Positions 1-61,456 of a DNA stretch of 64,000 nucleotides are shown here, piece by piece. Under the pieces are notes generated by a model. The model saw nothing but the letters and a program-made list of their open reading frames with translations, was not told where the DNA came from and ran no database searches. Position 1 is the stretch's first letter. Each line of letters begins with the position of its first letter. The DNA is from Minisyncoccota bacterium (lineage in GTDB: Bacteria > Patescibacteriota > Minisyncoccia > Phycocordibacterales > Phycocordibacteraceae): contig JAGOQE010000001.1 in NCBI GenBank assembly GCA_017991635.1, forward strand, positions 131,965 to 195,964. Direction: 5' to 3'. The position numbers were made by a program, and so were the translations under genes.

Positions 1-1042
1 CAAAAGGATTCCTTGCTCCACGCACCTCAAAATGCAAGTGATTTCCGGTTGAACGTCCTGTTGAGCCTACATAGCCAATAAGTTGACCCTTATCAACTCC
101 GCCAAGAGAAGCGGCGACGCTCGACATGTGGGCATAGAGTGTCTGTGTTCCGTTGCCATGATCAATTACCACGTAGCTTCCGTACCCGCCGTTATATCCT
201 GAACTCTTTGCAATGATAACGGTTCCGCCTGCAGCAGCATAGATAGGAGTTCCGGATGGAGCACCAATATCTACACCATTGTAACCATGGAGACCTTGTG
301 TGAGTCGTCCTCCAGGAAGAGGATTCCCGAAGAATCCTGAAATTGCAGGGAGGACCTTAGAAGCGACTGCTTTCTTGGCCGTCTTCTTAGTTGAGGCCAC
401 TGCGGTTTTTGGTACTTCACCGCCGGGGATAATAAGTGTCTCGCCCTGAGTAAGTCCAGCTCCAGCATCGATGCCATTGTAAATAGCAATATCTTCCGCA
501 TCACCGCCGTACTTCTTGGCTACTGAAGCCAACGTTTCACCTTTCTGAATCTTGTGTTGTACGCCAGAAACAGGGAGGATGAGGAGCGTCATGCCTGGCT
601 TTATGGTCTTTGCGTCCTTAATATCATTTGCCCACAAAATAGTGTTTGTAGAAACACCGAAGGTGGAAGCAATTTCTGATAGGGAGTCACCCTCCTCAAC
701 CGTGTAGGTAGTAATAGTTCCCTTGGCTGGTCGGCTTTCTATATCAGCAAGGGTACCTTCAGGACCACCGTTTGCGATAAGAGCACTGCCCTCAGTAATA
801 GCGATAGCAATAGTTCCTTTATTTGGGTTTGGGTCAGAGTGAAGTGCTGGCTCCAATAGGTCAATGCTTGGGTCGTGCACCACAGCGGTCTGAGGTTCTT
901 CAGCAGCAAAGGCGAATGTGAACGGCCAAAAACCCTTTACTTTTTCCGGAGAAAGTAAGAAAAATACGCCCAGGGTAAGCGTAGCGGTACACGTAATCGT
1001 GGTAAGTGTCTTGTATGTGCTCTTCTGGCGAGAAACTAACAT
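1..1042 (-). CDS. Secreted LysM (x2) + M23 family metallopeptidase, partial (C-terminus runs off window start)
   Basis: Hand translation of minus strand from ATG at 1042: N-terminal hydrophobic segment, two LysM-like blocks (YTVEEGDSLSEIASTFGVSTNTILWANDI; HKIQKGETLASVAKKYGG), then M23 signature (GVDIGAPSGTPIYAAAGG ... HGNGTQTLYAHMS ... GSTGRSTGNHLHFEV). Not in ORF track because no stop inside window. Confidence 0.75.
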   Translation of the reverse strand, partial: MLVSRQKSTYKTLTTITCTATLTLGVFFLLSPEKVKGFWPFTFAFAAEEPQTAVVHDPSIDLLEPALHSDPNPNKGTIAIAITEGSALIANGGPEGTLADIESRPAKGTITTYTVEEGDSLSEIASTFGVSTNTILWANDIKDAKTIKPGMTLLILPVSGVQHKIQKGETLASVAKKYGGDAEDIAIYNGIDAGAGLTQGETLIIPGGEVPKTAVASTKKTAKKAVASKVLPAISGFFGNPLPGGRLTQGLHGYNGVDIGAPSGTPIYAAAGGTVIIAKSSGYNGGYGSYVVIDHGNGTQTLYAHMSSVAASLGGVDKGQLIGYVGSTGRSTGNHLHFEVRGARNPF

Positions 1043-5125: not shown

Positions 5126-6661
5126 ATGCCTATGACTACAAAAAAAATCCTTGCCTCACTCGTCTTTGGAGCAATGCTCGTTGTGTCTGCAGGAACTCCA
5201 CAGAAAGCAGAGGCATTTCTTGGATTTGGTGACATCGTACTCGACCCTGCAAACCTAGTTCAGACAATTATCAATGTATATCAAGAAGGGGAGGGTATAT
5301 ACAAAGAGTTTGTCCTCGATCCACTTGCGTGGGTGGTTGGAAAACAGGCCGCACAATCAGTCGTCAAAAGTGTTATTACGTGGGCTGGAAATGGTTTTGA
5401 TGGAGAACCTTCATTCGTCACCGATCTCAATTCAAATATGCTTCGTGTCGGAGACACTGTAGCTGAAGATTTTCTAAAGCAGTACATGGAGAATAATGCT
5501 GTAAATTCCCCATACCGCGACAGTATTGCAAGCTCAATTAGAAGTGATTACTACCGCTCAACTGGACCAGGTGCGTTTTTTAACTCAAACAAATATGACT
5601 TGGACCAATACTCAGAAGATCCTGCAGCTTTCACAAGTGGAGATTTTACGAAGGGTGGATGGACAGCATGGTGGGCTATTAACTCTAACCCTCAAAACAA
5701 TCCGAGAGGAGCGTATATAACGGCGCAAGGTGCCCTTGATTCTTCAGTACAGAACGCTCAAAACAATCGCTCTGAAGAGCTTGATTGGGGAAGTGGCTTT
5801 CTTGCATATCGAGGAAACTGTAACTCGTCAGGCACAGGTGGCACAGCTTCAGCACCTGAAAAGAAGACCTTTGCTGACTTCTACGCAGCACTTGGGGACC
5901 AGTACCCAAATGAAGAAGCTGCACGAAATGCTTTTGAAAACCTTGCTGCATTAGGACCGTCGGATTCTTCTGGTAGTGGCAATGCGGTTTCTCTTTCCGG
6001 AAATTATGACTGTCTCTTGAACAGCACCATTCAAACTCAAGGAGCCACCATTAAGGCAAGTGTCGACAAGGCACTTGGAAGCGGGATTGACCAGCTCGTA
6101 AGTGCTGACGAGTTTAATGAAATTGTCGGTTCGCTCTTTTCTTCTCTCATTAGTAGCGTTATGGATGAGGGTCTTTCAAATGTAAGCAAGCCTTCTTCAA
6201 GTGGTAGAAGTACGCTTGGAGACGCAACTGACCCAGGCCAGCTATCAGGTTCAAGTCTTGGCACTAGTTTTGCTAAAACAATTGATAATCAGAAGAAGCA
6301 AGTTGAAGGATACAAGGAAGACTGGGAAGCAATTAATAAAGCAGCACTTGAAACAAAGGCGGCTTGCGGTAGCAGAAATACTGATGCTGATGCGATTATC
6401 CAACAGTCTACACAAGAAATTGCACGTGCAGTTGAAGCGCTCGCCGAGCTCGATAAACTTAAAGCCAAGACGAGCTCAACGTCATCATCTGATCTTACCA
6501 GTCTGGCAGGAGAGTTTGATGCTCTTCAGAAATCAGGAACACTTCCTTCTCCAGAGGAAATCGCTGAAGCACGCCTAAACGCAATGGATAATAGTGGTGG
6601 AGATTCTATGGTGTCACAAATGAAAGAAGCGAAAAATTCTTGCCTCGTGAGAGGTTTTTAG
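5126..6661 (+). CDS. Hypothetical secreted protein with C-terminal coiled-coil (T4SS-like operon member)
   Basis: Sec-type signal peptide (MPMTTKKILASLVFGAMLVVSAGTPQKAEA). Ser/Gly/Asn-rich middle. C-terminal heptad-like region. No recognisable catalytic motif. Confidence 0.4.
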   Translation: MPMTTKKILASLVFGAMLVVSAGTPQKAEAFLGFGDIVLDPANLVQTIINVYQEGEGIYKEFVLDPLAWVVGKQAAQSVVKSVITWAGNGFDGEPSFVTDLNSNMLRVGDTVAEDFLKQYMENNAVNSPYRDSIASSIRSDYYRSTGPGAFFNSNKYDLDQYSEDPAAFTSGDFTKGGWTAWWAINSNPQNNPRGAYITAQGALDSSVQNAQNNRSEELDWGSGFLAYRGNCNSSGTGGTASAPEKKTFADFYAALGDQYPNEEAARNAFENLAALGPSDSSGSGNAVSLSGNYDCLLNSTIQTQGATIKASVDKALGSGIDQLVSADEFNEIVGSLFSSLISSVMDEGLSNVSKPSSSGRSTLGDATDPGQLSGSSLGTSFAKTIDNQKKQVEGYKEDWEAINKAALETKAACGSRNTDADAIIQQSTQEIARAVEALAELDKLKAKTSSTSSSDLTSLAGEFDALQKSGTLPSPEEIAEARLNAMDNSGGDSMVSQMKEAKNSCLVRGF

Positions 6662-34144: not shown

Positions 34145-34219
34145 TGGTGCTCTCGGTAGGAATCGAACCTACATTACCAGCTCCGCAAGCTAGCGTCCTA
34201 TCCATTGAACGACGAGAGC
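34145..34219 (-). tRNA. tRNA-Arg (anticodon GCG), CCA encoded
   Basis: Hand fold: acceptor GCTCTCG/CGAGAGC, D-arm GTTCAATGGATAGGAC, anticodon loop TTGCGGA, T-arm GTAGGTTCGATTCCTAC, 3' ACCA. Confidence 0.7.
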
Positions 34220-50493: not shown

Positions 50494-51249
50494 ATGCGCG
50501 TGACCCCCATAAAGGTTGAGGTACGTAAGGCGCCCAAAGATTCACTCTTTGAGGCAATGCGTACCTCATCACTCAAACTTAAAGACGGAGATATAGTATG
50601 CGTTTCTTCAAAGGTTGTTTCTATTGATGAGGGGGCTTCTATTCCGTTTACACGGTCTGATAGAAACCGTCTTATAGAAGAAGAGAGTGATTGGTACTAC
50701 CAGGCACCAAAGACGTCTCGTTGGCGCACACTGTTTACCATCTCACGAGGCGTTATGGTCGGAGGAGCTGGTATAGATGAAAGTAATGGTAATGGACACT
50801 ATATCGTGTACCCGAAGCATCCTTTTAAGAGTGCCAAGCGGATTCGTCAGTGGTGTATGAAAGAGTACGGACTTACGACGCTTGCAGTTATTATCACAGA
50901 CTCTACTTCGACTCTACTTCGGCGTGGTGCCGTGGGGTTTGCGCTTGCGTGGGATGGAATGGATCCACTCCGTGACTATCGCGGAACACAAGATTTATTT
51001 GGAAGAAATTTTGTGATTGAACTTGCAAATCTCGTCGATGCCCTCGCTGCTTCAGCAGTGTTTGTTATGGGGGAGGGGAAGGAGCAGACGCCCATCGCAG
51101 TAATTGAAGGCGCGAAGGGTGTTGTGTTTAAAAATCGGTCACATAGAGTTGACCAACTTATGGTCGCTCCAGAAGACGATATTTTTGCGCCTTTATTCTG
51201 GAACAAAAAATGGAAACGAGGTGGCCGTTCTACGGGCGCTCAACAGTAA
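50494..51249 (+). CDS. CofE-family (F420-0:gamma-glutamyl ligase-like) protein
   Basis: Pattern ...GGAGIDESNGNG..., ...AVIITDSTSTLLRRGAVGFALAWDG..., ...RDYRGTQDLFGRNF...ALAASAVFVMGEGKEQTPIAVIEG matches the CofE/FbiB N-terminal domain family. Confidence 0.55.
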   Translation: MRVTPIKVEVRKAPKDSLFEAMRTSSLKLKDGDIVCVSSKVVSIDEGASIPFTRSDRNRLIEEESDWYYQAPKTSRWRTLFTISRGVMVGGAGIDESNGNGHYIVYPKHPFKSAKRIRQWCMKEYGLTTLAVIITDSTSTLLRRGAVGFALAWDGMDPLRDYRGTQDLFGRNFVIELANLVDALAASAVFVMGEGKEQTPIAVIEGAKGVVFKNRSHRVDQLMVAPEDDIFAPLFWNKKWKRGGRSTGAQQ

Positions 51250-55897: not shown

Positions 55898-57583
55898 ATG
55901 GAAGAGCGCATTAGAAGCGTTATACAGGAGACACTCACTTCGCTTACCGCGGAGCCTATCTCTTTTGTCGTTGAGTGGCCTGCAGAGCTTTCTCATGGTG
56001 ACATCTCTACCAATGTCGCCTTGGCTTCCGCTAAAGCAATCGGTAAATCACCTCGTGATATTGCTGAGTTAATGCGAGAGGCACTCACAACATCGCTTCG
56101 AGATGATGTGAGTGATATCTCTGTTGCGGGTCCTGGTTTCGTAAACATACGACTCTCAAAGAAGACGATTGATACAGAGGTCGCTCAAGCACGTATACAG
56201 CCAAGCGAGTGGGGCAAGGGAAGTGCACGGAGAGGACAAAAAATAATCTTTGAATATTCTTGCCCAAATCCGTTTAAGGAAATGCATATCGGGCATCTTA
56301 TGAGTACGGTGATTGGTGAAGCAAGCAGTCGACTTATTGAATCCCAAGGCGCACACGTTATCCGTGATTCATATGGGGGTGATGTTGGTCCACATGTGGC
56401 CAAGGCGCTGTGGGCAATACGTAAAAAGGGAGAGGGGATGCCTTCTTCAGCTCGAGAAGTTGGCGAAGCGTACGCATTTGGTTCTCGTCAGTACGACGAG
56501 CATGAAGATGCGAAAGCGGAGATTGATGCGCTCAATACAAAACTCTATGAAGTTGTAGGTAAGGCAGAGGGTGAGCGAGACGAAGAAGAGCGCGAGCTCT
56601 TTACCTTGTGGCGAGAGGGACGGGATTTATCTTTTGATTCTCACAAGGCTGTGTGGAGCGCACTTGGTACACACTTTGACTACCTCATTCACGAAAGCGA
56701 GACCACACCTATTGGTATGGAGGTGGTTAAGGACGCTCTGTCCAAGGGTGTGTTCGAAGAAAGTCAGGGTGCAGTAATTTATTCGGGGGAAAAGAAGGGA
56801 CTCCACACTCTTGTATTTATTACGAGTAGAGGGACACCTACCTATGAGACCAAGGACGTTGGGCTCGCCTTTCTTAAAGAGGAACGTCTCGCCCCATTTG
56901 ATTTCTCATACATCATGACGGCTAATGAGCAGTCAGGGCACTTTGCCGTGTTTCTTGGGGCTCTCGAAGATATTGCACCCATGCTCGCCAAGAAGACCTC
57001 ACACGTGCCGCATGGTTTTCTCCGACTTACTGAAGGGAAGATGGGTTCACGCACAGGAAATGTAATTACGGCAGTCAGTCTACTTGAGGACATTGAGGTA
57101 AAAGCAAGTGAAAAAAACGAAGACCCACTTATCGCGCACCAGGTCGCAGTTGGTGCGGTGAAGTACATGATTCTTCGTTCTGCTCCCGGAAGCGACATCA
57201 TTTTTGACCCAGAGAAATCGCTTTCTCTTGAGGGTGACTCAGGTCCCTACCTTCAATACGCGCTCGTGCGTGCCCGCTCAATCATTAAGGATAAAGACAT
57301 CTCAACAGAGGCACCATCTGAAGGGCCTAGAGAAGCGTTCACGCTCGCCCGTCTCATCCGCCGTTTCCCTAGAGTTGTTGAGGAAGCTGAAAGCAATCTT
57401 GCTCCGCACACGCTCACGCATTACCTCACCGAACTTGCCTCAGAATGGAATTCATTTTATGCACAAGAGAGAATTATTGGAGGAGAGCACGAGGCATACA
57501 AGCTTTGGCTTGCGAGTTCATTTGTACACACACTTGAAAACGGACTGACACTCCTTGGAATTCCTGCTCCAGAGAAGATGTAG
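55898..57583 (+). CDS. argS: Arginyl-tRNA synthetase
   Basis: Class I HIGH (PNPFKEMHIGHLMSTVIGE), catalytic core, C-terminal DALR anticodon-binding domain. 561 aa. Confidence 0.85.
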   Translation: MEERIRSVIQETLTSLTAEPISFVVEWPAELSHGDISTNVALASAKAIGKSPRDIAELMREALTTSLRDDVSDISVAGPGFVNIRLSKKTIDTEVAQARIQPSEWGKGSARRGQKIIFEYSCPNPFKEMHIGHLMSTVIGEASSRLIESQGAHVIRDSYGGDVGPHVAKALWAIRKKGEGMPSSAREVGEAYAFGSRQYDEHEDAKAEIDALNTKLYEVVGKAEGERDEEERELFTLWREGRDLSFDSHKAVWSALGTHFDYLIHESETTPIGMEVVKDALSKGVFEESQGAVIYSGEKKGLHTLVFITSRGTPTYETKDVGLAFLKEERLAPFDFSYIMTANEQSGHFAVFLGALEDIAPMLAKKTSHVPHGFLRLTEGKMGSRTGNVITAVSLLEDIEVKASEKNEDPLIAHQVAVGAVKYMILRSAPGSDIIFDPEKSLSLEGDSGPYLQYALVRARSIIKDKDISTEAPSEGPREAFTLARLIRRFPRVVEEAESNLAPHTLTHYLTELASEWNSFYAQERIIGGEHEAYKLWLASSFVHTLENGLTLLGIPAPEKM

Positions 57584-57669
57584 ATAACGTCTTGCGCATC
57601 TCAGTCAATAGCGCTAAGGTACCAAACGACTCTCTATTCGGGGGAGTTTGAATCTTTCGGGAGGAAAGC

Positions 57670-57903
57670 TTGAAAAAGCGTAAGTCTGGTTGGAAGAAAC
57701 ATCGGGACGCCGTCGTCCACGCGTGCCACGAGTTCGGCATGCGACCGAAACAACTGTTCTGCCTGGCCTACAGTGCCTGGCGCAGGAAGTTCGACGGGAG
57801 GGTGGTCTCCCATGCTTTCAACACCTGGCTGAAGAAGCAGCGTGTCCCGTACTGGGTTCGCGACTTCATCCGGATGCGCCGCCGTGAGCTGGCGTTCGCC
57901 TAA
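57670..57903 (+). CDS. Small basic protein encoded in a high-GC (about 62%), high-GC3 island; probable foreign-derived gene or gene fragment (TTG start; internal ATG possible)
   Basis: From about 57700 the frame shows about 85% G/C at codon third positions (GAC GCC GTC GTC CAC GCG TGC CAC GAG TTC GGC ...), unlike every other gene in the window. Ends TAA at 57901-57903, followed by a strong terminator. Confidence 0.45.
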   Translation: MKKRKSGWKKHRDAVVHACHEFGMRPKQLFCLAYSAWRRKFDGRVVSHAFNTWLKKQRVPYWVRDFIRMRRRELAFA

Positions 57904-57920
57904 GTACTAGGCGACTTACG

Positions 57921-57966
57921 AATTCAGCCGGGAGAAGAATTTCTTCTCCCGGCTGTTTCCTTTTTT
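57921..57966 (+). terminator. Intrinsic terminator after GC-rich ORF, upstream of ileS
   Basis: AGCCGGGAGAAGAATTTCTTCTCCCGGCT + TTTCCTTTTTTAT. Confidence 0.75.
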
Positions 57967-57994
57967 ATCCAGTAAACGCTAGGATAGGACTATT

Positions 57995-60900
57995 ATGGAA
58001 GGCAAAGAACCATCAGAGGTCGAGCGTAGTGAAGAGGCAATACTCTCATTTTGGGAAGCGCACGACATATTTCACAAGACTCTCGCCAAGCCTTCACCAA
58101 AGGGAACCTTTGTGTTTTATGAAGGACCTCCAACAGCAAACGGTCGCCCTGGAGTGCATCACCTTGAATCACGTTCATTTAAAGATGCGGTTCCACGTTA
58201 CAAGACGATGCGGGGATACCATGTGCCTCGCCGCGCAGGCTGGGATACACACGGATTGCCGGTCGAGCTTGAAGTAGAGAAGGAGCTCGGCTTCAAGGGA
58301 AAAAAGGATATCGAAGTTTACGGTGTCGCCGAATTTAATAAGAAGTGCCGAGAGAGTGTGATGAAGTACATACATGAGTGGGAAAAGTTTTCTCGTCGTA
58401 TGGCGTATGGTGTGGATCAAGAAAAGGCGTACTTCACCTTCAACGCTCCCTTCATGGAGACTGCGTGGTGGGTCCTGAAGCAAACCGCAGAGCAGGGAAG
58501 ACTCTACAAGGACTACAAGGTGGTGCCATGGTGCGCACGATGCGGTACCGGACTTTCTTCCCATGAACTTGCTCAAGGATATGCTGATGTTAAAGACCTT
58601 TCTATCACAGCGAAGTTTGAGTTAGTCGATGAACCCGGAACCTTCGTTCTTGCCTGGACTACCACACCATGGACCCTGCCCGGAAACGTTGCGCTTGCCG
58701 TGGGGAAGGATATTGCATACGGGCTCTATGAAAAAGACGGCGAAAAGGTAATCGTGGCCGTTGCTCGCGCAGAGAAGGTTCTACCCGACTGGTCTCTTTT
58801 GAAAGAGATGCAGGGACACGAACTTATTGGGAAGACGTACAAACCGCTTTATCCATTTGCTAAAGATATTGCAAAGGGTGAGGAGCTTACGAAATTTGAA
58901 AAGGCATACCAGATTTATCATGCAGATTTTGTAACGACTGAAGATGGTACGGGGGTCGTTCACACTGCCGTTATGTATGGTCAGGATGACTTTGTTCTCG
59001 GCTCGTCCCTTGGTTTGCCCAAGGTGCATCTCGTTGGGGCTGATGGCCGATTCGTTCCTGGTACTGATTTTCTTGAAGGTAGGTTTGTAAAAGAGGAAGA
59101 TGAAAACGGAAAGCCAACGCTTGCCGTTGATATTGTGGATGATTTAACTCGTCGCGGACTTTTCTTTGCGAAGGAGAATTACGCTCACTCGTATCCGTTT
59201 TGTTGGCGTTGTAAAACTCCACTTATCTACTACGCGCGCGATTCATGGTACGTCCGCATGCAAGATTTGCAGGATGCGATGGTTGCTGAGAATAAACGGG
59301 TTAATTGGGAGCCTTCTCATATCAAAGACGGTCGTATGGGCGAGTGGCTTAAGGGCGCAAAAGACTGGGCAATTTCTCGCGAACGGTATTGGGGTACACC
59401 ACTTCCTGTGTGGGAGAGCATTGATGGGGAAGAGCGTGTGGTGATTGGTTCTATCGAGGAGCTTAAAAGTAAGGTCAAGAAAAGTGGCAACACCTACATC
59501 ATGATGCGTCATGGTGAGGCAACTCATAACCTAGAAAAGCGACTCGACTCTTCACTCGCAGGCTCTCATCTTACTGAGAAGGGAAGGCAAGAGGTACTTG
59601 CACGTATCCCTGAACTTAAGGCTAAGAAGATTTCTCGAGTATATGTATCGCCCCTTGCGCGTGCGAGGGAGACCGCAGACTTACTTACAAAGGAGCTTGG
59701 CCTTGCCGAAGAAGTCATAATCGTTGATGAGAGACTTCGCGAATTTACCTTTGGTGAGTTAGAAGGAAAGACAAGTGCTGATTTTGCAGAAGTTCGTGAG
59801 AATCTTCCGTACGATGGTGTCATTACTGAAGGAGAGAGTTATCAGGACGCAAAGAACCGTTTCGGAGATTTTCTCTATGAGGTAGAGCGCACACATAAGA
59901 ACGAAACAATACTTATAGTCACGCACGGTATTGGTTTTGAAGCGTTGGGTGCGGTAGCACAAGCTTCAGACAAAGAGACTTCAAAGAAGCTCATCAATGA
60001 ACTATTTGCACGACCAGCCGAAGTGCGTGCTCTTAACTTCATCCCACTTCCACACAACGAAGACTTTGAGCTTGATTTGCATCGTCCTTACATAGACGAG
60101 ATTGTCTTGATTGGTGCGGGCGGACAAGAACTTACACGCGTGAAAGATGTTATGGACGTGTGGTTTGATTCGGGTGTCGTGCCGTTTGCACAAGACCACT
60201 ATCCGTTTGAAAACAAGAAAGCGTTTGATAAGCAGGCATATCCAGCAGACTATATTTCAGAAGCAATAGACCAGACGAGAGGTTGGTTTTACACCTTGAT
60301 GGCTGTTGGCACACTCTTGAAGCGCGGACGACCATATAAGAATGTAATTTGTCTCGGGCACCTTCTTGATGGGGAGGGACAGAAAATGAGTAAGTCAAAG
60401 GGAAACATTATTAATCCGTGGGAGGCAATGGATGAGTGGGGTGCCGACACGCTTCGCTTGTGGATGTATAGCGTAAATCAGCCGGGAGATTCAAAGAGCT
60501 TTTCAGAAAAGACCGTAAAGGAAACTGCACGTAGTTTGTCTTGGTTTGAGAACAGCCTCAAGTTCTATGAACTCTTTAAAGATGTGCCTCATACCGGGGG
60601 AACGCTCCAGGCAGTAGATGTGTGGATGTCAGCGCGTACCAGACAGACCGTCTGTCGTATGACTGAATACATGGACGACTACAAACTCTATGACGCCACA
60701 CGAGAGCTGCAGGGATATTTTGAGGACGTATCTCAATGGTATGTGCGCCGTATACGCGACCGTGCACGAGCGGGGGATAGGGCAGCGCTCCAGACATTGC
60801 GTCACGTACTTCATACAGGGGCTCGATTGCTCGCGCCGTTTTCACCATTCTTGGCTGAGCGCGTGTATCAAGTAGTGAAGTATCACCATGACCCTGAGAG

Positions 60901-61456
60901 CGTTCACTTAAGCGAGTGGCCAGAGCACTTCTCATCAATCTTGAGTCGCTTGCTTGGAGACGATGCTAAGGACAAAAACGTTATTGCCTCAATGGCGCGT
61001 GTGCGTGCTATTGCTTCACAAGGGCTCATGGAGCGCCAAAAGGTAGGCATAAAGGTACGTCAGCCTCTTGAACGACTTACGGTTTCTGGAGTGCCGCTGG
61101 CTCAGGCATATGTCGCACTCATTCGCGAAGAAGTGAATGTCGAAGAGGTGGAATTTGATGAGAAGCTCGAGGAAGGTACCATCATTCTCGACAGCACACT
61201 CACGCCCGCTTTGATTAAGAAAGGTGACGTGCGTGAATTTCTTCGAGCACTCGCTGATGCGCGAAAGCAGATGGAGCTTGAGCCAACAGACATGGTGTTG
61301 GTGTCTGTAGATGGAACACTGGAGGCACTACTCCTTGGAGAGGAGATACCTGGTGTAGAGCGTCTTTCATCACAAGAGGTGCGCGGCACACATACAGTAC
61401 TGTTATCAACGGGAGAGGCGACATTTAGTGTCTCTGTACGTACACATGCGACATAA
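57995..61456 (+). CDS. ileS: Isoleucyl-tRNA synthetase carrying an inserted histidine-phosphatase (phosphoglycerate-mutase-like) domain
   Basis: HIGH region PPTANGRPGVHHL, editing-domain signature TTPWTLPGN, WAISRERYWGTPLPVW, KMSKS (GQKMSKSKGN). Between PVW and DLHRPYID lies about 180 aa with RHG-phosphatase motifs (MMRHGEATHN; SPLARARETA; ILIVTHGIG). Confidence 0.85.
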   Translation: MEGKEPSEVERSEEAILSFWEAHDIFHKTLAKPSPKGTFVFYEGPPTANGRPGVHHLESRSFKDAVPRYKTMRGYHVPRRAGWDTHGLPVELEVEKELGFKGKKDIEVYGVAEFNKKCRESVMKYIHEWEKFSRRMAYGVDQEKAYFTFNAPFMETAWWVLKQTAEQGRLYKDYKVVPWCARCGTGLSSHELAQGYADVKDLSITAKFELVDEPGTFVLAWTTTPWTLPGNVALAVGKDIAYGLYEKDGEKVIVAVARAEKVLPDWSLLKEMQGHELIGKTYKPLYPFAKDIAKGEELTKFEKAYQIYHADFVTTEDGTGVVHTAVMYGQDDFVLGSSLGLPKVHLVGADGRFVPGTDFLEGRFVKEEDENGKPTLAVDIVDDLTRRGLFFAKENYAHSYPFCWRCKTPLIYYARDSWYVRMQDLQDAMVAENKRVNWEPSHIKDGRMGEWLKGAKDWAISRERYWGTPLPVWESIDGEERVVIGSIEELKSKVKKSGNTYIMMRHGEATHNLEKRLDSSLAGSHLTEKGRQEVLARIPELKAKKISRVYVSPLARARETADLLTKELGLAEEVIIVDERLREFTFGELEGKTSADFAEVRENLPYDGVITEGESYQDAKNRFGDFLYEVERTHKNETILIVTHGIGFEALGAVAQASDKETSKKLINELFARPAEVRALNFIPLPHNEDFELDLHRPYIDEIVLIGAGGQELTRVKDVMDVWFDSGVVPFAQDHYPFENKKAFDKQAYPADYISEAIDQTRGWFYTLMAVGTLLKRGRPYKNVICLGHLLDGEGQKMSKSKGNIINPWEAMDEWGADTLRLWMYSVNQPGDSKSFSEKTVKETARSLSWFENSLKFYELFKDVPHTGGTLQAVDVWMSARTRQTVCRMTEYMDDYKLYDATRELQGYFEDVSQWYVRRIRDRARAGDRAALQTLRHVLHTGARLLAPFSPFLAERVYQVVKYHHDPESVHLSEWPEHFSSILSRLLGDDAKDKNVIASMARVRAIASQGLMERQKVGIKVRQPLERLTVSGVPLAQAYVALIREEVNVEEVEFDEKLEEGTIILDSTLTPALIKKGDVREFLRALADARKQMELEPTDMVLVSVDGTLEALLLGEEIPGVERLSSQEVRGTHTVLLSTGEATFSVSVRTHAT

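Follow-up and report, generated by a model that had tools for sequence, protein, structure and literature searches.

The stretch of 64,000 nucleotides analysed here (the window; Minisyncoccota bacterium, contig JAGOQE010000001.1) carries, between argS and ileS, a small gene whose third codon positions are much richer in G+C than those of the other genes. The gene occupies positions 57670-57903 of the forward strand. Its open reading frame (ORF) starts with TTG, encodes 77 amino acids and ends with a TAA stop codon (57901-57903). The argS reading frame stops upstream of it, at 57581-57583 (+), and the small gene is followed by the terminator-promoter region that lies between argS and ileS. The initial annotation of this DNA had described the site as a ~200 bp island of high GC content and high GC content at third codon positions (GC3), formed by a separate small gene that follows the argS stop and has a terminator of its own. 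This description proved accurate in all its parts.

The GC content of segment 57700-57903 is 0.627, the maximum among all 204-bp segments of the window (mean ~0.47, sd 0.037). In ORF 57670-57903 (+) the G+C fraction is 0.55 at first (GC1), 0.44 at second (GC2) and ~0.80 at third codon positions. GC3 is 0.84 from position 57700 onward and 0.86 over codons 13-77, which form the GC3-rich core of the gene (57706-57900, +). The other ORFs of the window that encode at least 100 amino acids have a GC3 of 0.42 ± 0.04 with a maximum of 0.54, in agreement with the earlier statement that such codon usage is absent from the window's other genes. ORF 271-504 (-), with a GC3 of 0.64, was set aside: on reading the sequence it appears to be a spurious frame inside a longer gene that runs off the start of the window. 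When the same protein was recoded by the codon usage of the window, GC3 was 0.46 ± 0.054; calculated exactly over the frame, the observed 0.80 is elevated by z = 6.3 (0 of 20,000 draws).

All four leucine codons of the small gene are CTG and all six phenylalanine codons are TTC. Genome-wide, these codons account for 6% of Leu and 29% of Phe codons, respectively. GTC, GCC, CGG and AGG, all rare in the host genome, are favoured as well. G and C are enriched alike, every codon family is shifted equally, and the composition of the gene has a period of three. GC1 and GC2 are normal for the genome, the shift being limited to synonymous (third) positions.

The step in GC3 stays inside the coding sequence (CDS). 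In five lineages it lies within ~30 nt of the CDS edges, and GC3 is 0.37-0.58 over the final 100 codons of argS and the initial 100 of ileS, without a gradient in either gene. A regional gradient, whether of mutation or of GC-biased gene conversion (gBGC), was rejected as the cause on this ground. Expression-linked codon bias was rejected too: the genes of ribosomal proteins L11 and L19 have GC3 values of 0.42 and 0.45, respectively.

Homologues of the small protein were searched for among 5.8 billion protein clusters and, with phmmer, among 1.84 billion representative sequences. The searches recovered a handful of proteins: the window protein itself, annotated as hypothetical in a 'Candidatus Pacebacteria' metagenome-assembled genome (MAG), P0002 (83% identical), P0004, P0006, P0007 and P0008. 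Among the phmmer matches P0004 is a true homologue; P0003 and P0005 were discarded as spurious repeat proteins. Further loci (L005, L008, L009 and L087) were added by a scan with the N-terminus of isoleucyl-tRNA synthetase (IleRS) over one genome per GTDB species and by a scan of metagenomes with the conserved ileS-promoter motif described below. The same slot holds an orthologue in no fewer than five further lineages (L001/L002, L005/L083/L084, L009, L008 and L087), and the gene order SHMT-argS-X-ileS, where X is the small gene, was found at every orthologue locus with DNA to inspect. The sequence clusters formed by the small genes agree with those formed by the flanks. Distant orthologue proteins are 21-40% identical, and the IleRS N-terminus of the window lineage is 74-79% identical to that of the L005/L083/L009 cluster.

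In most of the ~80 loci found by the IleRS scan argS and ileS are adjacent. The gap between them is 4-60 nt, or 340-560 nt with a small ORF in the clade nearest to the window. Sequence comparison thus presents the small gene as an insertion relative to many Paceibacteria, yet as older than the diversification of its own clade. Some small ORFs in the slot are positional analogues of unproven homology: an iterative hidden Markov model (HMM) search gave no more than marginal matches for L016, L067 and L019, the L012/L011 group gave an hhalign E of 0.0037 with 9% probability, and the similarity of the L061 group to the small-gene family was not significant.

The initial annotation had raised the concern of a chimeric assembly. 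The probability that the island results from an assembly chimera, or from contaminating read-through in the MAG, is negligible. The composition step is all that speaks for it. The same argS-X-ileS junctions are present in independent contigs assembled from different samples (DRR685413, DRR685430, GCA_018826945.1, GCA_018826405.1, GTDB representatives and JGI contigs), and both junction regions consist of conserved functional sequence. Relatives were also checked for an orthologous gene of low GC content at this place, and were found to carry an orthologous high-GC gene instead.

The conservation pattern around the gene points to expression signals of its own. A promoter-like element is located at 57592-57620 (+), where TTGCGC (57592-57597) and TAAGGT (57615-57620) are separated by a 17-nt spacer. 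TTGC and TA(A/G)GGT are invariant across seven lineages, the intervening 17-18 nt have diverged completely, and L087 has the same layout. Invariant hexamers around a diverged spacer have the appearance of a promoter signature, which would belong to the small gene. A scan with the strict sigma-70 consensus called no promoter at this element or at the ileS upstream motif. In the minimum-free-energy (MFE) fold the transcript has a 5′ stem-loop at 57628-57648 (+), with the sequence GACUCUCU / AUUCG / GGGGAGUU. An equivalent hairpin occurs at the same place in L001, L005, L083, L009, L008 and L087. The stem sequences differ, and within the L005 cluster the changes preserve pairing. A Shine-Dalgarno site, GGGAGGA (57659-57665, +), lies 5 nt ahead of the TTG codon. 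GGAGG is conserved upstream of the starts of the orthologues, which are TTG or GTG and in no case ATG.

The stop codon is spanned by a short hairpin at 57896-57914 (+), TCGCCTA / AGTAC / TAGGCGA, a 7-bp perfect inverted repeat. L001/L002 have preserved it; the L005 group shows no obvious counterpart. The terminator scan identified an intrinsic terminator at 57925-57965 (+). Its 14-bp stem (57925-57955) contains nine GC pairs and is followed by the T-tract TTTCCTTTTT. The sequence of the stem varies between species with pairing retained, and GTTTYCnTTTT is conserved. In the gap from the argS stop to the small gene, neither reading of the sequence nor the terminator scan detected a hairpin; the terminator at 57925-57965 ends the small-gene transcript and probably argS read-through as well.

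After the terminator, the region 57974-57997 (+) contains the ileS upstream motif AAACGCTAGGATA (57974-57986), which includes the -10-like hexamer TAGGAT (57980-57985), and the ileS ATG (57995-57997). The motif is invariant in 13 species-level sequences and lies 9 nt ahead of the ileS start codon; a similar sequence, GCTAAGGTA, precedes the small gene. Equivalent motifs were found upstream of ileS in L003-L012, L061 and L085-L090, in species with and without the small gene. Segment 57904-57994 is 97% identical to that of L001, as against 83% for the coding flanks. By its conservation AAACGCTAGGATA is a candidate ileS promoter, and the likeness of AAACGCTAGGATA and GCTAAGGTA suggests a clade-specific -10-like element, TA(A/G)G(G/A)T. 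Given the closeness of the -10-like element to the ATG, the ileS mRNA may be nearly leaderless.

The ratio of nonsynonymous to synonymous divergence (dN/dS) of the small gene is 0.20 between the window and L001, 0.22 between L005 and L083, and 0.52 between L005 and L009. Between the window and L001, sense third positions have collected the most substitutions and second positions the fewest. We conclude that 57670-57903 is a genuine protein-coding gene with its own promoter-like, Shine-Dalgarno and terminator signals. The earlier suggestion of a gene fragment has to be dropped.

A different view of the locus is that the GC-rich block works mainly as RNA (a leader, an attenuator or a small RNA for ileS, T-box-like or with a leader peptide), or that an antisense gene constrains its synonymous sites. 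Such a function would suit the terminator directly upstream of ileS, the reduced synonymous divergence and the in-register antisense frame, which is fully open in all orthologues. The antisense frame is open because TTA, CTA and TCA codons are absent from the sense ORF, and an overlapping antisense gene was rejected: neither the start nor the length of the antisense ORFs is conserved. No Rfam family, T-box included, was found in 57400-58200 with E values up to 10, and a search of the whole window at gathering thresholds returned seven tRNAs only. Of the 77 codons of the ORF a single one specifies Ile, the terminator is followed by a conserved promoter-like motif that belongs to ileS, and a structure signal in the CDS was not found. 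The excess of substitutions at sense third positions and the protein-level homology described below also argue against an RNA or antisense function, which is very improbable.

We also considered a translational throttle, in which host-rare codons and a non-ATG start would hold down how much, or how fast, a potentially harmful regulator is made, as in rare-codon control of regulatory genes. The use of CTG, CGG, AGG, GTC, GCC and TTC (6-29% of the respective codon families in the genome) and the TTG or GTG start of every orthologue are compatible with it. The equal shift in all codon families points to an effect at the level of nucleotides rather than of particular tRNAs. Positional analogues (homology unproven) in hosts with a GC3 of 0.70, in which these codons are common, still have GC3 values of 0.77-0.85, and the strong Shine-Dalgarno site contradicts minimised expression. 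A throttle is improbable.

The product of the small gene is a very basic protein of 77 amino acids with a pI of 11.4. It contains 12 Arg, 9 Lys and 4 Trp residues, as expected from the earlier description of a basic, Arg/Trp-rich peptide. The AlphaFold2 model, built from seven sequences only (pLDDT 85.5, pTM 0.71), has helices at residues 6-22, 26-37, 43-56 and 61-76. In the model a disordered Lys/Arg-rich N-terminal tail precedes the four-helix core, and the protein ends after helix 4. Searches of Pfam, PHROGs, NCBIfam, PADLOC and PDB sequences, with the single protein and with alignments, gave no match; in the Pfam, NCBIfam, PHROG and PDB sequence searches this includes the helix-turn-helix (HTH) families (e.g. 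Pfam HTH_3/HTH_31). Fold searches yielded weak HTH-like (lambda-repressor-like, Xre, POU-specific) and ANTAR-like similarity and nothing stronger. For the ANTAR RNA-binding domain there was neither a match to Pfam PF03861 nor a strong structural match. The small protein belongs to an undescribed family.

Verified orthologues have GC3 values of 0.75-0.83 (~0.75-0.85 over all lineages), as against 0.44-0.47 in their flanks. Their GC1 of 0.52-0.67 is host-like, as against 0.73 in the high-GC relatives described below. In the flanks synonymous divergence (dS) is saturated even between the closest lineages: it is 0.97-2.2 between the window and L001, and 1.4 to >3 within the L005/L083/L009 cluster. 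The third positions of distant orthologue pairs differ by 18-24 exchanges between G and C and by 20-30 differences between S (G or C) and W (A or T), with GC3 unchanged. When third-position changes on the L005 and L083 branches were polarised with L009 as the outgroup, five were S to W, three W to S and two S to S. These changes imply an equilibrium GC3 of ~0.75, whereas neutral decay toward 0.45 predicts a ratio of ~6:1 (8 informative changes, p ~0.09).

Since the flanks are saturated and GC1 and GC2 are host-like, we infer that the GC3 of the small gene is stationary and actively maintained, and is not the decaying signature of horizontal gene transfer (HGT). A transfer relic that is still ameliorating is very unlikely. 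Because the high GC3 is shared by orthologues with saturated flanks, the force that maintains it should be specific to the small gene, either selection on the mRNA or its codons, or biased gene conversion.

The only relatives of the small gene outside its clade belong to a family that we call family B. A marginal match, P0009 (E 0.04), led to this family of uncharacterised 129-aa proteins from Gammaproteobacteria MAGs (P0009-P0021, e.g. NCBI OEN20_08600). Comparison of the two family alignments with hhalign gave a probability of 96.4% and an E of 1.3e-9 over 62 columns, with ~31% identity over 62 residues. The motifs LFRxAY..W and VPxWVRDY/F are common to both families. When all fetched loci were translated in six frames and the resulting 8,337 ORFs were searched with the family-B HMM, the four best matches (E 7e-5 to 1e-3) were the small ORFs of L001, L002, the window and L008, and the fifth had an E >1. 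For family B, AlphaFold2 predicts these four helices again; behind them come a transmembrane helix (residues 89-116) and a Cys-containing tail.

Family B is homologous to the small protein through its N-terminal four-helix domain. It has a C-terminal transmembrane helix with a CLLPPCY tail and is without the basic N-terminal arm, whereas the window protein is the converse. No Pfam domains were found in the family-B proteins. The genomic settings also differ: the small gene lies between argS and ileS, whereas the family-B gene lies just downstream of rsd/algQ (PF04353). On five contigs (L091, region 5361-6390, and L092-L095) it lies 160-270 nt downstream of a gene of the Rsd/AlgQ (anti-sigma-70) family. 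In L091 it adjoins a gene for a DsbH-type thioredoxin. Family B may be a redox-sensing, membrane-tethered regulator. For the small protein itself, our best guess and the most likely role is that of a small, low-abundance regulator that would bind nucleic acid or RNA polymerase. This guess is based on the basic arm and helical core of the model, on the weak HTH-like and ANTAR-like folds, and on the membrane-tethered homologues encoded beside rsd/algQ.

The genomes with family B have a GC content of 66%. A GC3 of 0.84 is native to the gene there, and its GC1 is 0.73. An ancient transfer in either direction between the small-gene clade, before it diversified, and a high-GC gammaproteobacterial lineage is possible on the sequence evidence. 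A recent, un-ameliorated import, or a fragment, from a high-GC, Actinobacteria-like donor, possibly the host of an epibiont, is another matter. It would explain the foreign codon usage, the insertion relative to many Paceibacteria and the fact that the only outside relatives reside in 66% GC genomes. Opposed to it are the same-site orthologues of equal GC3 in at least five lineages, the saturated synonymous sites of the flanks, the low identity (~31% over 62 residues) to the outside family and the GC1 of 0.55, which is host-like and not donor-like (0.73). No actinobacterial homologue was found among the 5.8 billion clusters and 1.84 billion representatives, and no integrase or mobility gene, tRNA or repeat flanks the small gene (the nearest tRNA is >13 kb away). 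A recent import is far-fetched. Of the earlier proposal of a horizontally acquired gene, the insertion, the foreign codon usage and the high-GC distant relatives stand; its recent, un-ameliorated nature does not, in view of the orthologues in at least five lineages and the saturated flanks. Family B is the only support for the proposed high-GC donor and has no bearing on Actinobacteria, and the proposal of an Actinobacteria-like donor fails, the distant relatives being gammaproteobacterial.

Overall, the best explanation of the island is an old, conserved gene with actively maintained GC3, to which we assign a probability of about one half. As for the mechanism taken separately, selection on the transcript is the one we prefer, tentatively and at less than even odds, as an inference and not a demonstration. 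The mRNA would be short and weakly initiated from the TTG or GTG start. It would be made stable and compact by the 5′ stem-loop, the GC-rich body and the strong terminator, and a maintained A-rich composition of its first ~12 codons would keep the start site open. The whole transcript has a predicted folding energy of -146.9 kcal/mol (z = -5.9); much of this z value is probably due to the 5′ hairpin and the terminator, the CDS by itself being without such a signal. The 5′ hairpin and the terminator are the only conserved RNA structures.

Several observations weigh against this explanation. Compared with permutations of synonymous codons, the MFE of the CDS gave z values of -0.4 to -1.0 in five of six orthologues and -2.7 in one. 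RNAalifold, compared with shuffles of codon columns, gave z values of -0.9 to -2.3, with a covariation term of +1.7. Because no conserved structure was found in the CDS, the mRNA-level argument relies on bulk GC content only. The polarised substitution test comprises 8 informative changes (p ~0.09), all hosts of verified orthologues share a GC content of 47-50%, and independence from host GC was seen only in positional analogues of unproven homology. The remaining points concern recombination at the junction. Between L001 and L002 the divergence is 0.4% in the CDS, 0% in the downstream spacer and 11% in ileS (0-2% left of the ileS start). L006 and L007 (argS stop 3486/3648, ileS start 4001) are 85-93% identical at the nucleotide level in ileS and 55-74% in argS, and their spacers are unalignable. 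The small genes of L005 and L083 are five-fold closer to each other than either is to that of L009, whereas the flanks are equidistant. Gene exchange or biased gene conversion could therefore be contributing.

The argS-ileS junction (57584-57994 in the window) acts like a variable cassette slot and like a breakpoint of recombination, with the qualification that artefacts of single-contig assembly are possible. In close relatives the slot contains unrelated or unalignable small ORFs, or none. The NG86 proportion of synonymous differences (pS) is 0.23-0.42 in the small gene and 0.54-0.74 in the flanks, i.e. two to three times lower. It is also somewhat low in the gene ends beside the junction; with recombination occurring, the low pS is not taken as proof of constraint on the CDS.

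These data can be read as the result of a cassette at a recombination hotspot, exchanged among lineages by homologous recombination anchored in the conserved 3′ end of argS and in the invariant ileS promoter region. The high GC3 would then stem from GC-biased gene conversion, or from a donor pool of Paceibacteria with higher GC content, and not from selection on the transcript. The mosaics with breakpoints at the junction, the exchangeable content of the slot, the distribution of pS and the discordant L005-L083 and L009 branch lengths are in accord with this reading. So are the enrichment of both G and C without codon-specific preference and the GC3 of the positional-analogue small ORFs, which at 0.6-0.85 is less variable than that of their flanks (0.44-0.87). 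The sharp limits of the GC3 step, within ~30 nt of the CDS in five lineages and with no gradient into argS or ileS, are at odds with it, as are GC1 and GC2, which are host-like although the protein evolves fast. The effect is very large, +0.35 in GC3. Reported effects of gBGC in bacteria amount to a few percent. A verified member of the family in a high-GC Paceibacterium was not found among the 5.8 billion protein clusters, and some of the mosaics may be artefacts of metagenome assembly. We regard the exchanged cassette as possible, yet doubtful.

What is left to account for the GC3 is thus selection on bulk properties of the transcript or its codons, or GC-biased conversion or exchange confined to the cassette. 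Of these two we favour selection on the transcript. In either case, the synonymous sites of one gene are ~80% G+C throughout a clade of Paceibacteria in which the other genes have ~45%, while the protein has diverged almost beyond recognition. That this is a clean single-gene case of a non-mutational force, be it strong selection on mRNA or extreme local biased gene conversion, falls, in our estimate, a little short of even odds.

Three features elsewhere in the window were recorded in passing. IleRS (57995-61456, 1153 aa) contains a histidine-phosphatase domain (PF00300 His_Phos_1, E 2.5e-31) with an RHGE motif. The domain occupies residues 502-655 (59498-59959) as an insertion midway through the class I catalytic core, and an insert at the same place in ~78 related Paceibacteria loci (tblastn, 30-52% identity) makes it a class-wide feature. 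ARAGORN identified a tRNA-Arg with the anticodon GCG at 34145-34219 (-). Bacteria usually decode CGU, CGC and CGA with an ACG (inosine) tRNA, and the GCG anticodon may mean that this lineage has a reduced or altered decoding set. ORF 50494-51249 (+), just after secE-nusG-rplK, matches F420-0:gamma-glutamyl ligase (PF01996, E 1e-34), which is unexpected in a Paceibacterium with a small genome.

Full-text searches of the literature returned no report of the small gene or of GC3 outliers in Patescibacteria. Compositional outliers are routinely taken as recent transfers. Examined against relatives, this reading fails here: the anomaly is conserved among them and is apparently in equilibrium. Should the GC3 set-point be selective, the small gene would be a natural experiment on synonymous G+C in a bacterial transcript; should conversion drive it, the locus would rank as an extreme bacterial example of gBGC. 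In addition, the analysis establishes a family of small proteins that had no name before, common to bacteria of the candidate phyla radiation and to Gammaproteobacteria, where it is encoded beside the anti-sigma-70 gene rsd, and singles out the argS-ileS junction as a variable cassette site in Paceibacteria. No major open question is altered by these results.

Among known systems, T-box and leader-peptide attenuators of aminoacyl-tRNA synthetase genes share with the locus a terminator hairpin immediately upstream of the synthetase gene, here ileS. The small gene differs from them in that it has neither a T-box match nor a run of Ile codons, that ileS has its own promoter-like motif and that the encoded protein is conserved and folded.

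In the model of Lawrence and Ochman, compositionally atypical genes are said to be recent transfers that ameliorate toward the composition of the host. The small gene resembles recently transferred genes in its sharp GC and GC3 anomaly, its host-rare codons, its restriction to one lineage and its insertion between conserved genes. It is unlike them in that the anomaly is common to orthologues with saturated flanks, as expected at equilibrium, that GC1 and GC2 are host-like and that signatures of mobility are absent.

According to the gBGC hypothesis, biased gene conversion favours G+C at synonymous sites. Genic base composition has been studied in relation to growth rate in bacteria (PMC4478552), and fitness effects of synonymous changes have been described at the RNA level (PMC6112741). 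As with G+C-favouring selection or gBGC, the synonymous sites of the small gene would be pushed toward G and C by a non-mutational force, independently of translation optimisation. Those effects are genome-wide and small, whereas here the shift is ~+0.35 in GC3, is limited to a single gene of 230-270 bp and is conserved across lineages.

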